A DNA stretch of 63,695 nucleotides, filler included, from Collodictyon triciliatum (GCA_043381765.1; 6 parts of 6 records of this genome joined end to end with filler, not necessarily neighbours in it); one strand, 5' to 3'; positions 579-57,096 are shown, numbered from the whole stretch's first letter. A program made the numbers and translations. Notes: generated by a model not told the origin, from the letters alone.

Positions 579-3500
579 ATGAGTTGTCTGCGATTCGAGC
601 GAATGTTTACCGCAAGACTTTCATTTGCATTATTGATATCCAAGCATATCCGCTCTATTAGTTTAGCCTCCGATAGACATTCTCTCGCTCGTTTATCCGT
701 ATTTCTCTCTTATTACCATTCCCTTTTCGCTACATATACATAACAATCGGTGTTGTTGATATAGACTGCAAATCTCGCTATCCCAAGAGACATTCCCGAC
801 TACATCGCCGGCTATATCCATCAGTGTAGTATAATCGGCGTGGATGTGCTCGATGACGTTCTCTCCTCTCTGGATGAAGCGCGTTCTACAAACATTCTTG
901 ATTTATCAAAGTCACATAGGCGAATCGTATGTGTTATAAAACAAAAGAAAACAAAAGAAAACAAAAGAAAACAAAAGAAAACAAAAGAAAACAAAACAAA
1001 AGAAAACAAAACAAAAGAAAACAAAACAAAAGAAAACAAAACAAAAGAAAACAAAACAAGAAACAAAACAAGAAACAAAACAAGAAACAAAACAAGAAAC
1101 AAAACAAGGAACAAAACAAGAAACAAAACAAGGAACAAAACAAGAAACAAAACAAGAAACAAAACAAGAAACAAAACAAGAAACAAAACAAGAAACAAAA
1201 CAAGAAACAAAACAAGAAACAAAAACAAAAGAATAAAACTATCGACCGGCCACAAATACATCTTACGTATCATCGATAATAAAGAAACAAACATATTAGT
1301 GAACAAAATTGATCACAATAAAAGGCCAAATTTACACAAGAACATTAATTGGCGTGCCATGACTGAAGGCGCGAGTATTCAGTAGCAGTTTTTTTTTTCT
1401 TTATTCACCTGGATAACTATTTTATTTGTTAAATAGGACGATTCCCAGATTATGTGCCTTGCCTCATCACTTGTACATAGCCCGTGGATATCAACCATTG
1501 AGATAGCGAATCAAACCGTCTCGGTCGCTGGTGCGATGGAACTCGGCACTGTTTTGCACCGTACATTTTACATTTGCATTTATGCTCCTTTTTTTTTTTT
1601 TTGGAACTTCTTCCTTGAATTTAAAAATAAAGTTAAAAAGACGTCCTTCTTGACAATTTTCTATGGTCCAATTATTATCCCTTCAACATCTGATAAATAA
1701 TATATTTTTCACTTTTCTTCTTCAGAGAACCAATCCATTACGAAAATTAACATGGGAGGAAATGATATACGAAGTGAGGGTCTTCTTGCGTTGGTATCAC
1801 ACTTTGAAACTCATAGCAGCCTCATTGAGCTTGGAATCGCATCGAACAATGTTTGAATCTACTATATAATACAACAGAAAATTCTCAGCTGAAACACAAT
1901 TCACTACACCAAAAAACAAAAAAATAAAAATAAATAAAGTTTCCACACACATGTAAGCATCTTGAAGAATAAATTAACTTTTTGTTTGCCCAATAAAAAA
2001 AAACTATTTATTTACACGGTCTGCATATTTTCCTATGATTATCACAGATAGGAAACCATGGAGCTGCTGGGTTGGCACGTTTTATGTCATTGCCAACTTG
2101 CAAACTTCAGATTTTAGACTTGAGGCACAATAATATCAAGCTCGACGGCATCGAGCGACTGGCTATTGGGTTGAAAGTAAGTGTGTTTTTCTCCCTCTCT
2201 TTAATCCGTAGGATAATCATTCCTAATTAATATGTCATATTCGTTGCACTTGTTAAAGATATACCATTTAGCATGTCAAAATTTCGAATCAGGATATGAT
2301 TAACAATATTTAACTTTGTCTTGGCTCGAATCAATTTCTGTATTCGATGTAGGCTAATGAAAATTTACATACTCTGAATCTGAGATTTAATCAAATTCGA
2401 GAGCAGTAAGATATCAAATTAGATTTTATTTGACATATTGTACAAAATCAAGTTATGGACTGTTTCATGCTTATTTGGTGCATGTGCGTGGGTGATTATA
2501 GAGGATGTGCCGTGCTTGGGAGTTGTTTGATGAAGAATCAATCCCTAACGAGCTTGGATATCGGAGCAAATGGGTAAATATCTGTTGGATCTGGGCACAA
2601 TAAGTTTCCTTTATGTTTAGGGTCATACATTTATTTCAATCTTTCCTTTCCAGAGTTAAATATAATGTGTAACTTTATGTATAAATGCATAGTATATCCG
2701 ATGAAGGAGCACGCAGTTTAGCAGGTAGGCATATATGTGGCATTCGACTAAGTTACTTATTAAAGCAATCACTGATGTCATTCAAAATATTTCTTTCTAT
2801 AGCCGGCCTTTCTGTGAATAAATCACTGAAGAAGATTAACTTGCGGAGCAACGAAATACGTGACGATGGGTTCATAGCTTTGCTTGAATCTCTGAAAAGG
2901 TCTTCATTAAGTCAATCAATCATGAAATACATTCATACACACGGAATTAGAGATTCTCTCCTTTTTTTTAAAAAAAAAACCGCCTGATTACCCATAATTG
3001 TAATAGAAATAACACGCTTACTGCACTCTACCTAGGAAATAACAAACCATCAAAGCTAGGTAGAAGAATAATGAACTATTTCATTTTAATAAAAATATTT
3101 GATTGCTGTGAGTTGCTCTTCAGCATGACATTATTTTTTTTTTCCTTTATTCGATTCAATTCAGCATGACATTATAAAGTTTCTCAAGTTGCAAAGAATG
3201 AAACGAGTTTATAAATAAAAATCGATATGATGACTTTTAGCCACTAATAAATTCATTTTAATAATAACATGCACAGTTTGCTCGTCATTAAGTCTAGTCG
3301 TCACCCTGAACAACAGAGTTTCTCAATTAGACCTTCAGGTAATTACCTGCACGGTTTAATTTTAAGTTCTTCGTTAAACAAAAGAAAAAATACTACTAAA
3401 AACAAACAAACAAACAAACAAACAAACAAACAAACAAACAAACAAACAAACAAACAAACAAACAAACAAACAAACAAACAAACAAACAAACAAACGGGCT

Positions 3501-6500
3501 AAATTATTGTCTCCAGGGTCTTCGAGTAGAGCCACAGAGTGTTCAGACGATATCAGAAGCTCTGTCTGCGAATAACGGAATTAAGGTGGGATTATTGTTT
3601 TAAACTATTTATAAATTTAAGATACCCTCACTGGCTTTTTTTTTTTTCGATTCGGATGACATTTGTAAATGGAAAAAGTAAAATTGTTTCATCCGTTATC
3701 TAGGAACTCGTCATTGATTTGCCTCCTGATATCCGTGATAGGGTTGATTTCCGTCAACCATGTCTTCACTTATCGAAAATTATTATTTTATTAATATTTT
3801 TTCTATGAAACGAGAGATCGATTCTGACACTATCGGTAATGTTTTATCAACAGTTTATGAGTATTCTTCAAAGGAGGTGGCCCGAGGCTTATTTTGTTGA
3901 TATTCCACCTGCTTCAGGGTATGTACAACTTTCCTACAATTTCATTACGCATAATTTCCTCGTATCAGATAATAGAATTGTAACCAATAATTAGGAACGA
4001 GGCTGGCCATGCATGCACAGTGCGAATCCACCGTGATGGCATCCTTCATAATTCTGACCAGACATGGAACTCTATGACGCATAATACAACAATCGAGCAA
4101 TATATCCCTCATCCAGATCGTATGTTTGTATATATATATATTAAATTTGTTCATTTGATTTGTACTCATTATCATTTCGTGAATAATATATACTCGATTA
4201 AAAACTATATCTTATATTGCACTTCATAAATGGATGCATATCTAAAATTCATTAGAACTCCTTCCTCGACATGCATCATTGAAAAGCTTCACTGCCGAAC
4301 ATTTGGTAAGTGTTGTCATTCAATGTCCTTTTTTTTTTTTTTTAATAACAACAATAGTAATAACGATAATGAGAACGATACAACTCCAACGATACAGCAC
4401 AGAATTAAAAAAAAATCATTTATTCATCCCCTTTTTTCATGTTTTAGGACACGAGTGGAGCCAGATATCACCCCAATTGTATTAATCAATATATATATAT
4501 ATTTAACGTGAACTTTTTTGTTTTTTTCAGTATGTCTAGAAATGAAGTAATTAATGCCAACCTACTAAAAAATTAAAAAAATAGATTCTTCCTTGGGTGC
4601 CAATGGTACAGTTATGGTATACATTTCTTATCGTCATATCTGTAGATAGTTCTTAATATTTTTTATTTTATATCTATTTTTTATCTCCTCATACTCTGCC
4701 TACAATTTGAATTTAGGGTGCCAATTCTTCATCCCTTACAAACTTAAGTACTTTCCCTGTACATCGAGGAACCCATCTCGGACATAGTATGCTTTTTTTT
4801 ATTTTTAGTATATTCAACTAAGTGTTCTGGTTAATATATATATATTAGTTTTCAGGATATTTTGGCTGGGGTAATTCATTGATTTGCCTAAAAATAAAAC
4901 AGATCAACAGCCAAAAGTAGACATCAATGGCAAAAAGCCAAAGCCCAGTTTTCGAAATGAAACAATGACCCCAAATGTTTGTAGCTATGAATGTTTTGAT
5001 TTATTCTTTTGATTCATCTAAGTTGCCTGACTGCATTTTTTTTTATCTTTTCTATATAAAAATGCAGAATATATACGAAACTTAAATTCACACAAAGATT
5101 TCCATAACAACTTCAGAGTTTCAGTGAAGAGAAGCCCGAACGCGGTCCCTCTAACGCACCAGCAAAGTCACTCATATCAACGAATCAAGTGCTTGTGAGC
5201 CCTGCATCAAATTTTTCAGGTTCACTACCTGCATATTCTTAGTACTATAATATGTATAAATCCGCACAAACACACAGAACATCATATTGATAATTAAACG
5301 AGTATTGCATCAACTTTAAATGGTGTTGATCGAATAGAATCTGTAAACAGACGTCAGTCGGGATATCCGCAACAAAGCCAAGAGTATTATTTTTTTTTTA
5401 ATGTTTTTACGTATATTTATAGTTCTGCTCCGTTTTGATATTCCTTCATCAATTATCAAAACACCATTGTTTTGCTATGTTTTGTTATGTTTGCTCTTAA
5501 AAAAATAGAATTTTGTTACCATGATTATCACACTATCACCCAGCAAATTTCTAACAAATAACAATTTCAAAATATTCCGGTGTAGTCTCCAAACACAAGG
5601 CCATGTATATAACCCGGCGATAGCAGATGTAAAAATATACTTATTCATCCAATATTTCATATTTGACATTCGTATATAAGTGTTGATTATAGCGATTTCG
5701 ATTCAAAAAAGAAAGAATAATTTCATTATGAATACCTCGAAGCGAGCGACCCCCAATCATTTCATCGAAATCCTCCATTAGGTGGACTTAAGCCAAAGCA
5801 TCACAGGGCAAAGCTTGGATGTCGCATCCCTTCTACAATTACGCGACCAACTGGCCCATCAGTATTCATCGTTCTCGAATGTAATGAATATTCTTATCTT
5901 ATTATTGTACTCTCTCTCTCTCTACCCATTAAGAAATAATCTTTCTTATTTTCTCTACGGGATTTTTCGTGCTAAGTCTCCTTTATTTACATTCCCGAAT
6001 AAACCTATTAAGCACGTCGCACAGCAAATCAACCAACTCCAAGAAGACCAGCATACATTCACGGAGCTCTACCAGACACAAATGCGCGCACTGGACGAAG
6101 GTCATCATGATGATATCCAAATGATTATGGAGAAAATGCAAGAAGTCTCTCAAACTCATGAACAACTCGTCGAGATTCACGTAAAAAAATAATAATGAAA
6201 AATGAAAAATAAAAAATGAAAAAAGAAGAAAAAAGCAAAAGCAAAAGAACCCCGACAACATATATATTTCTCCTTTCCCCAACTCACTCAGATTACATCG
6301 CGACCCAGAAATCAAGCATGCACGACATCCGCGAGGAGCAGCAGCTTCTCTTCCAGGGAATCCAGACACAATTCAACCAGCTGCTCACAAACACCGAGAA
6401 GGAGCTGCAGATTCTGCGCCAGCACCAGCGCCAAAAGAAAGCAGCAGACGCATCAGCCTCCGACCAGCTGGATGCGCTTCTGCCTCAGCGCCTCGCAGAC

Positions 6501-56986: not shown

Positions 56987-57044
56987 ATGATGGGTTTCTG
57001 GAACGCGCTATCTATATTAATAAAAAGAAATCTATTTTCTGTTC

Positions 57045-57096
57045 TCTTCATTTGACCACATTTTTTTCCTTTATTCGATTCTTCATTTGACCACAT
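57045..57096 (-). mobile_element. Micro-insertion of LINE B 3' tip with 17-bp TSD (just 3' of the ADCY10-like stop)
   Basis: TCTTCATTTGACCACAT is duplicated around (T)6-CCTTTATTCGAT. Confidence 0.85.

Follow-up and report, generated by a model that had tools for sequence, protein, structure and literature searches.

Tip-only LINE insertions with target-site duplications in DNA of Collodictyon triciliatum

Introduction

In the L2-clade LINE/SINE pairs of eel and zebrafish, the two partners share a 3′ tail, and recognition of the 3′ end is stringent. Human LINE-1 (L1) provides the other close comparison. For L1, PMC2912911 and PMC11702581 lay out a framework that comprises 5′ truncation, joining at microhomologies, template jumping, and twin priming, the last being the model for 5′-inverted insertions (PMC2912911). 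The 5′ junctions of L1 copies are described as carrying truncations together with small microhomologies or filler (PMC2912911), and the target-site duplications reported for de novo L1-mediated insertions measure 12–18 bp (PMC11702581). As to length, the L1 experiment presented in PMC11702581 gave a median inserted length of 712 bp, and PMC4398972 reports L1 insertions that are “very heavily truncated.” Among small retroposons, Platy-1, at ∼100 bp, is presented as the shortest primate SINE (PMC4864456).

Here we describe much shorter insertions in a stretch of 63,695 nucleotides from Collodictyon triciliatum (GCA_043381765.1), hereafter the window, which holds two LINE families that we call LINE A and LINE B. 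Like human L1 insertions made by target-primed reverse transcription (TPRT), they carry an A-tail and target-site duplications and are 5′ truncated with small microhomologies or filler, T-rich|A nick sites recur among them, and an APE-type endonuclease accompanies the reverse transcriptase in full-length relatives of the element. Several features set them apart from L1. Whereas the L1 median given in PMC11702581 is 712 bp, 9 of the 12 LINE-derived pieces in the window measure only 12–48 nt. In addition, each family has a narrow length class of its own, the A-tails of the LINE B inserts are only 6–10 nt long, and the LINE B reverse transcriptase is only 32–35% identical to its nearest full-length relatives. 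The 5′ truncation of LINEs is already known; the tip-only form is an extreme case of it, and the conceptual step is modest.

The other known systems offer different likenesses. As in the LINE/SINE pairs that share a tail, only the LINE's own 3′ end is mobilized in the window, but here there is no small-RNA-derived head, defined 5′ end, or independent promoter, and the mobilized piece can be as short as 12 nt. Platy-1, as characterized in PMC4864456, is likewise a retroposon of very small size that depends on L1 and has an A-tail and target-site duplications. However, it is an element with a defined sequence of its own, whereas the LINE B inserts, at 18–29 nt with their tails, are simply the parent's tip. 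Full-text searches of the literature listed no report of a LINE with insertions that are mostly ≤50 nt long, a weak negative given that L1 length tables often stand in supplementary files, beyond the full text.

Results

The reference for the LINE B tip is a long copy on the minus strand (38552–40780) that is either 5′ truncated or cut by the assembly gap at 40781. It contains RVT_1 and zf-RVT domains (E = 3.4e-17 and E = 1.6e-07, respectively, in the minus-strand frame 38654–40828), one in-frame stop, a 3′ UTR of 93 nt, and a tail of A9. An independent LINE B copy on a metagenome contig (L040) is 95.6% identical over 1,046 compared positions, and the flanks of the two copies diverge right after the A-run, which confirms the end of the tail. 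This contig supplied the one true LINE B tail among the 118 stretches in the matches listed by a metagenome scan with the tip plus A6 as query. The other 117 are chance matches, and no further tip-only insert of the same organism is present among the 118 matches listed.

The nearest full-length relatives of the LINE B reverse transcriptase are metagenome proteins. All five that were scanned combine RVT_1 with Exo_endo_phos, the latter at the N terminus, and three of the five also contain zf-RVT. The window copies are without the N-terminal part, and homology to these relatives suggests that LINE B, too, has an APE-type endonuclease. A word-indexed protein search with the LINE B reverse transcriptase, which covered longer proteins only, gave no match. 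A cluster look-up of five matches (three reverse transcriptase fragments and two full-length relatives) returned “hypothetical protein” as the sole annotation.

Four loci elsewhere in the window contain only the LINE B tip and a tail, enclosed by a direct repeat. Read on the element strand, all four show the same order: direct repeat, LINE-tip nucleotides, A-run, and the same repeat again. The first (B1, 3119–3175, minus strand) has an exact 16-bp duplication (3119–3134 and 3160–3175) around 16 tip nt and 9–10 A. The second (B2, 9997–10051, plus strand), which follows a run of 8 T, has an exact 17-bp duplication (9997–10013 and 10035–10051) around 14 tip nt and 7–8 A, with 1 nt of junction microhomology (15 tip nt if the ambiguous base is counted). 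The third (B3, 36034–36090, plus strand) has an exact 14-bp duplication around 18 tip nt and 6 A. Its tip bears a single mismatch to LINE B, as the preliminary description had recorded, and its 5′ junction includes 5 non-LINE nucleotides that are common to no other copy; alternatively, these extra nucleotides reflect an altered T-run length in the upstream repeat copy. The fourth (B4, 57045–57096, minus strand) has an exact 17-bp duplication around 12 tip nt and 6 A, with 2 nt of junction microhomology (14 tip nt if both ambiguous bases are counted).

These repeat lengths were re-derived by script and reproduce the exact flanking repeats first reported at the four loci, and the reported makeup of the inserts, LINE B tip plus poly(A), was likewise recovered at every one (12–18 nt of tip, 6–10 A). 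The 3′ end of the inserts is constant, with the same tip nucleotide followed in all four cases by an A-run that adjoins the downstream repeat. The 5′ ends are variable, and all four differ, lying 12, 14, 16, and 18 nt from the tip. Except for the one mismatch at 36034, the inserted tip exactly matches the end of the long LINE B copy at 38552–38576. With the last 200 nt of LINE B as a blastn-short query, the tailed matches in the window are these four loci only. Tip-only copies stand to long copies of LINE B in the window as 4 to 1. It had been noted earlier that several targets begin at a T|A junction; this is true of three of the four loci, where T's lie upstream of the repeat start, the fourth junction being G|T. 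The duplication, the A-tail beside the downstream repeat, the constant 3′ end, the variable 5′ ends, and the T-rich|A context at three of four sites together make up the TPRT signature that had been proposed for these loci.

The 15-nt tip motif has exactly five exact matches in the window, namely the four copies flanked by target-site duplications and the one LINE tail. At ≤2 mismatches, it has seven matches against 0.68 expected, and none of 100 shuffles reached seven. Exact, non-overlapping direct repeats of ≥14 nt within 120 nt of each other number nine, compared with a mean of 0.055 and a maximum of 1 in 200 block shuffles. When close direct repeats were tallied without reference to the motif, the same four loci were recovered among 16 pairs, which comprise four LINE B inserts, three LINE A inserts, six tandem-array pairs, and three distant pairs; inserts from any other RNA were not found in this census of the window. 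Weaker tip-like matches at 18530, 61269, 57276, 36887, 5697, and 34166 have neither tail nor repeat (0 of 6) and were set aside as chance.

An adjacent repeat was found at none of the 117 unrelated metagenome occurrences of the motif among the matches listed. A scan of prokaryote genomes yielded eight matches and two scans of viral contigs yielded zero and three, all 11 of them chance occurrences and all without a repeat. Pooled over this unrelated public DNA, an adjacent repeat accompanies 0 of 128 chance occurrences (117 among the matches listed, plus 11). A chance origin of the four loci is excluded.

A second, related family, LINE A, has left short insertions of the same kind. The first three have exact duplications of 13 bp (A1, 30239–30335, plus strand; 48 nt of 3′ UTR, with a T-run after the A-rich tail), 12 bp (A2, 37662–37747, plus strand; 47 nt of 3′ UTR and an A-rich tail), and 14 bp (A3, 55862–55944, minus strand; 42 nt of 3′ UTR and an A-rich tail). 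A fourth (A4, 21853–21936, plus strand) has an exact 11-bp duplication and 38 nt of 3′ UTR. On its 5′ side, a T-rich stretch, assigned by eye, reads as an inverted copy of the A-rich tail and so resembles the outcome of twin priming. Unlike in twin priming of L1, the inverted part would consist of tail only, and the LINE B loci have nothing of the kind. An older insertion (A5, 16236–16300, plus strand) retains ∼33 nt of 3′ UTR together with an A-rich tail; its boundaries are approximate because the flanking repeat is imperfect (8 exact nt). Tails included, the LINE A inserts measure 55–71 nt.

Two longer LINE A copies, each of ∼0.6 kb, are present as well. One (17447–18068, plus strand) consists of a C-terminal ORF fragment, the 3′ UTR, and a degenerate A-rich tail. 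The other (57440–58029, minus strand) adjoins an N-run on its 5′ side, and its C-terminal ORF fragment shares 33% identity with LINE B. The nick sites of LINE A depart from the T-rich|A rule, with A after T at none of the three exact-repeat sites and one site beginning AA after TT; thus, the pairing of tail and primer looks different in this family.

The lengths of the LINE-derived pieces separate the two families without overlap, at 12, 14, 16, and 18 nt for LINE B and at 33, 38, 42, 47, and 48 nt for LINE A (exact Mann-Whitney P = 0.016 for n = 4 versus n = 5, the intervals having been chosen post hoc). Together, these nine are the pieces of ≤48 nt among the 12 in the window. The coefficients of variation are 0.17 for LINE B and 0.15 for LINE A, and geometric simulations attain them in 0.5% and 0.07% of cases, respectively. 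Because the lengths are under-dispersed in this way, simple random abortion is disfavored, and since each family has its own narrow stop zone, the stop is not a random fall-off. The ∼20 nt proposed earlier for the abortion of most events is not a general figure, as LINE A stops at 33–48 nt. The draft sequence of the window is interrupted by 19 N-runs, and of the long LINE copies, two adjoin an N-run; the ratio of short to long copies may be inflated, as long repeats tend to fall into assembly gaps.

Within each family, the 5′ ends are ragged over 7 nt (LINE B) and 16 nt (LINE A). Measured from the stop codon, they lie 7–14 nt downstream in four LINE A copies and about 75–81 nt downstream in LINE B, so that a rule placing them at the ribosome edge fits part of LINE A and fails for LINE B. 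A block by 3′ RNA structure had also been put forward as a cause of the stop. The LINE B 3′ UTR folds no better than shuffled sequence (z = +1.1), with 177 of 200 shuffles folding equally well or better. For the LINE A 3′ UTR, the value is z = −1.1, with a hairpin that spans the stop codon and that, judged by eye, is not kept in the other long LINE A copy. No stable RNA structure is thus predicted, and a structural block was dropped on the folding of both 3′ UTRs.

Discussion

The four loci are probably separate, recent insertions produced by TPRT of LINE B RNA, and the action of an L1-like element in this TPRT is well supported. We infer as follows which enzyme acted, in what order the steps took place, and why copying stopped early. 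An L1-like endonuclease of the APE type would nick the bottom strand, usually at T-rich|A, and the freed 3′ end would prime on the element's A-tail. The reverse transcriptase would then copy only 12–18 nt of the LINE B 3′ UTR. The short cDNA would be joined to a staggered break in the top strand through 0–2 nt of microhomology or a few filler nucleotides, and fill-in would give rise to the 14–17 bp target-site duplication. LINE A would take the same route and stop 33–48 nt into its own 3′ UTR.

In our preferred reading, the LINE enzymes would usually fail to switch from initiation to processive synthesis. After a short, family-specific distance, the nascent cDNA would be passed to second-strand cleavage and end joining, or to a template jump, and the copies of 0.6 kb to over 2.2 kb would be rare escapes. 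Initiation failure alone leaves the threefold gap in stop distance between the two families unexplained. The early stop could come about through hand-over to end joining, or it could arise where short 3′ RNA fragments are the templates.

TPRT on such a discrete short RNA, with a 3′-terminal fragment of the LINE transcript as candidate template, is a tentative alternative that we consider possible, if doubtful. The fragment might be a decay intermediate shielded by bound reverse transcriptase, or a product of endonucleolytic or small-RNA-guided cleavage; it would be copied to its own 5′ end, and template jumping would then complete the joining. The narrow, family-specific length classes speak for this explanation, as do 5′ ends that are ragged within only 7 nt in LINE B and 16 nt in LINE A. 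The 36034 insert also favors it, with 5 unmatched nucleotides at its 5′ junction, which are expected of untemplated addition at an RNA end, and so does the derivation of all nine short A-tailed inserts from two LINE tails and from no other RNA. However, inserts of 18–29 nt in LINE B and 55–71 nt in LINE A follow no common processing rule such as small-RNA size, and the ribosome-edge rule fails for LINE B, with its 5′ ends about 75–81 nt past the stop codon.

A related reading, which we regard as rather unlikely, is that the two LINE families mostly spread a minimal “tip unit,” a discrete 3′-terminal RNA of 12–18 nt (LINE B) or 33–48 nt (LINE A) plus tail that would be either shielded by bound reverse transcriptase or cut by dedicated cleavage. 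If true, they would rank as the smallest retrotransposed units on record and would directly map the minimal RNA for recognition and priming by a LINE enzyme. Each copy would plant an AATAAA signal and an A-run, at a density of about one copy per 7 kb in the window.

The makeup of the inserts also bears on whether they are LINE copies at all. It is very improbable, and close to refuted, that instead of being truncated LINE copies, they represent a very small, non-autonomous retroposon of SINE-like type with a tail borrowed from the LINE. Short partners that share a tail with a LINE are known, and the inserts are both short and numerous. Yet they have no head or promoter-like part, each consisting of LINE 3′ UTR and tail only; the four LINE B 5′ ends are all different; and the sole extra nucleotides, the 5 at 36034, are common to no other copy. 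Least credible of all is that chance, an assembly artefact, or DNA-level templated repair (e.g., polymerase-theta-type filler), and not retrotransposition, produced the inserts: although the window is a draft with 19 N-runs, the shuffle controls point the other way, repeats occur at 0 of 128 unrelated motif occurrences (117 among the matches listed), four unlinked sites, which between them cover both orientations, have the same 3′ end and A-run next to the downstream repeat, and repair filler makes neither 14–17 bp duplications nor A-tails.

All nine short A-tailed inserts in the window derive from a LINE A or LINE B tail, and other cellular RNAs contributed none. This mobilization of the LINEs' own tails fits specific tail recognition or a strong cis-preference, and such inserts bear on the minimal 3′ sequence for recognition. 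The narrow, family-specific stop zones serve as a natural read-out of events early in TPRT that are difficult to approach, either the initiation-to-processive switch or the size of the RNA gripped by the enzyme.

If the pattern is genome-wide, then most integration attempts by these LINEs leave scars of 20–70 bp. Because scars of this size are invisible to repeat annotation, estimates of how active the elements are, of the insertional load, and of the number of endonuclease cuts would in that case be far too low. The LINE B tip carries a canonical polyadenylation hexamer beside the A-run, and poly(A) sites as well as A-rich microsatellites could arise from its scars in the host genome. As a separate observation on the host's own sequence, the best named matches of an EF-G-like ORF are oomycete proteins at only 38% identity, and an atlas search with it leads to bacterial-type EF-G clusters.

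Anatomy of the LINE B insertions

Minimal retrotransposon insertions, consisting of little more than the 3′ tip of a LINE and a poly(A) run, are confirmed in this window, and the observation extends to a second LINE family. All four loci that carry only the tip of LINE B (the LINE at 38552-40780, minus strand) read the same way on the element strand when parsed by script: an exact direct repeat, the terminal LINE B nucleotides, an A-run, and the second copy of the repeat. The repeat, tip, and A-run measure 16 bp, 16 nt, and 9-10 nt at 3119-3175 (minus strand); 17 bp, 14 nt, and 7-8 nt at 9997-10051 (plus); 14 bp, 18 nt, and 6 nt at 36034-36090 (plus); and 17 bp, 12 nt, and 6 nt at 57045-57096 (minus). 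The coordinates, repeat lengths, and single mismatch given in the preliminary description all proved correct when the loci were re-read. That mismatch to the LINE B tip, at the 36034 locus, suggests a second source variant. The 5′ junction of this locus also holds five non-LINE nucleotides, or alternatively reflects a changed T-run length in the upstream repeat copy.

Since the LINE B repeats contain no mismatch across 64 bp in total, these insertion events are recent. The four loci sit in AT-rich surroundings (flank GC 0.31-0.36), outside every stop-to-stop frame of at least 100 codons. Microhomology at the four 5′ junctions amounts to 0, 1, 0, and 2 nt, which is unremarkable and compatible with end joining. 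Several targets had been said to begin at a T|A junction; this holds at three of the four sites, one of them preceded by a run of 8 T, while the fourth begins at G|T. The T|A start at these three resembles the nick-site rule known from L1.

The parent element

The minus-strand frame of LINE B (38654-40780) encodes RVT_1 and zf-RVT domains with one in-frame stop, and is followed by a 93-nt 3′ UTR and an A9 tail. On its 5′ side the copy meets an N-run at 40781, so that its visible length may fall short of the true length. A metagenome contig, L040, spans an independent copy (L040:1-1157) whose 3′ flank is unlike that in the window; the two copies are 95.6% identical over 1,046 compared positions, so the source organism itself or a close relative of it is present in a public metagenome. 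The L040 copy stops on the same nucleotide and continues into A10 and then unrelated flank, which establishes the LINE B 3′ terminus. An exhaustive profile search returned 11,077 relatives at E ≤ 0.001, the closest full-length ones having 32-35% identity in the RT. All five full-length relatives scanned combine an N-terminal Exo_endo_phos domain with RVT_1, three of them with zf-RVT as well, which argues for an L1-like APE+RT architecture in the family. Judging from these relatives, LINE B would encode an endonuclease, a domain absent from the window copies.

A second family, LINE A

A motif-blind census of exact direct repeats (≥12 nt, ≤400 nt apart) over the whole window returned 16 pairs: the four LINE B loci, six in tandem arrays, three distant, and three new short inserts carrying a different tail (30239-30335, 37662-37747, and 55862-55944). 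This tail belongs to LINE A, a related family, and has six matches in the window, with exact 11-14 bp repeats at four and a decayed repeat at one; the sixth, at 57457, is the end of a longer fragment. The inserts at 21853-21936 and 16236-16300 bring the short, repeat-flanked LINE A inserts to five, each comprising 3′ UTR sequence plus an A-rich tail. Their 5′ ends cluster shortly downstream of the parent's stop codon, 7-14 nt past it in four and ∼24 nt past it in one. Two longer fragments of ∼0.6 kb occur at 17447-18068 (plus strand), where the tail is too diverged for a tail-motif match, and at 57440-58029 (minus strand); their C-terminal ORF shares 33% identity with that of LINE B. At its 5′ side the 21853 insert bears a T-run (21864-21880) that resembles an inverted tail of the twin-priming kind; in the 30239 insert, another T-run (30312-30322) comes after the A-rich tail.

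Insert lengths and mechanism

Locus anatomy bears out the proposed origin of the short inserts by target-primed reverse transcription (TPRT) that copied the 3′ ends of the LINEs themselves, and this origin is well supported. Without their tails, the inserts measure 12, 14, 16, and 18 nt for LINE B and 33, 38, 42, 47, and 48 nt for LINE A. With 4 and 5 events and tests chosen after data inspection, the statistics are indicative only: no length of one family falls within the range of the other (exact Mann-Whitney P = 0.016), and the coefficients of variation (0.17 for LINE B, 0.15 for LINE A) are reached by 0.5% and 0.07%, respectively, of geometric samples of equal mean. By this indication, random fall-off does not fit the insert lengths. 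Motif-blind scans of the window found no inserts with 0-11 nt of tip. The earlier figure of about 20 nt describes LINE B but not LINE A, and the 3′ RNA structure block offered as a cause gains no support, as a stable structure is not predicted for either 3′ UTR (folding z of +1.1 for LINE B and −1.1 for LINE A). A hairpin predicted in the LINE A UTR is not kept in the other long LINE A copy. Narrow, non-overlapping lengths without a predicted stable structure point instead to a preferred stop zone in each family.

Our inference is that synthesis by these enzymes seldom gets beyond initiation to become processive. Second-strand cleavage with end joining, or else a template jump, would then capture the short cDNA, and long copies would be rare escapes from this early stop. 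The main rival holds that the templates are discrete 3′-terminal RNA fragments; sequence alone does not separate it from early stopping. The absence of a head and the variable 5′ ends all but exclude a SINE-like element. The controls that follow rule out chance, assembly artefact, and repair filler.

Abundance and controls

Close repeat pairs with gaps of up to 120 nt number 13 at ≥12 nt (mean 0.96, maximum 4, in 200 block shuffles) and 9 at ≥14 nt (mean 0.055, maximum 1). The 15-nt tip motif has five exact matches in the window, namely the four loci and the LINE B tail; at ≤2 mismatches it has seven against 0.68 expected, a count reached by none of 100 shuffles. Both inexact matches, like four further partial ones, are chance occurrences, none of the six having a tail or a repeat. 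The motif occurs in at least 118 metagenome stretches. Among the matches listed, 117 are unrelated occurrences, none with an adjacent repeat (0/117), and three show a non-adjacent 10-mer repeat 64-65 nt upstream. Matches in the prokaryote and viral collections likewise had no adjacent repeat (0/11). A strict scan for A-runs abutting repeats gave eight matches on the real strands (the four LINE B loci, one of them twice; the LINE A 21853 insert via its T-run; and two in tandem arrays) and four on reversed sequence (three in tandem arrays and the 30239 locus via its T-run). Within the window, the census and A-run scan found no short A-tailed, repeat-flanked inserts from any other RNA.

Nine of the 12 LINE-derived pieces are ≤48 nt, about one per 7 kb of the 61,624 non-N bases; these counts describe one window of a gapped draft assembly, and the short-to-long ratio is an upper bound because long repeats may hide in its 19 N-runs.

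Comparison with known LINEs

Human L1 is described as undergoing 5′ truncation and creating duplications of 12-18 bp, with microhomology joining, template jumping, and twin priming also documented (PMC2912911, PMC11702581, and PMC4398972). There, the median L1 insert is given as 712 bp, with 76 of 99 truncated (PMC11702581), and some insertions are called "very heavily truncated" (PMC4398972). The present inserts differ in degree, three quarters of LINE pieces being <50 nt, and in shape, each family having its own narrow length class. Nothing equivalent was found in the open-access main texts searched.

Other features of the window

Five N-runs (28080-28179, 40781-40880, 46574-46673, 52769-52868, and 58030-58129) each consist of 44 N, 12 bases, and 44 N, and the 5′ ends of LINE copies adjoin two of them. 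Most of the remaining gaps measure 100 N (8 of the other 9 runs), with 59 and 872 N also present. Tandem arrays occupy 26415-26520 (units of ∼23 nt) and 33261-33381 (12-nt units, ending at an N-run), and trinucleotide low-complexity tracts are numerous (e.g., 1-1238, 9029-9130, 19555-19676, and 42544-42636). An uninterrupted 620-codon EF-G-type frame lies at 50418-52280 (plus strand). Its best named relatives, oomycete EF-G (one annotated as mitochondrial EF-G 2) and bacterial EF-G, reach only 35-38% identity, so the collection searched contains no close sequenced relative of the host lineage. Host-like frames near the LINEs encode an LRR_8-rich protein (41060-42154, plus), an HMG-box protein (24561-25577, minus), and a protein with a weak TPR match (54672-56036, plus); this last stop-to-stop frame contains the LINE A insert at 55862-55944.
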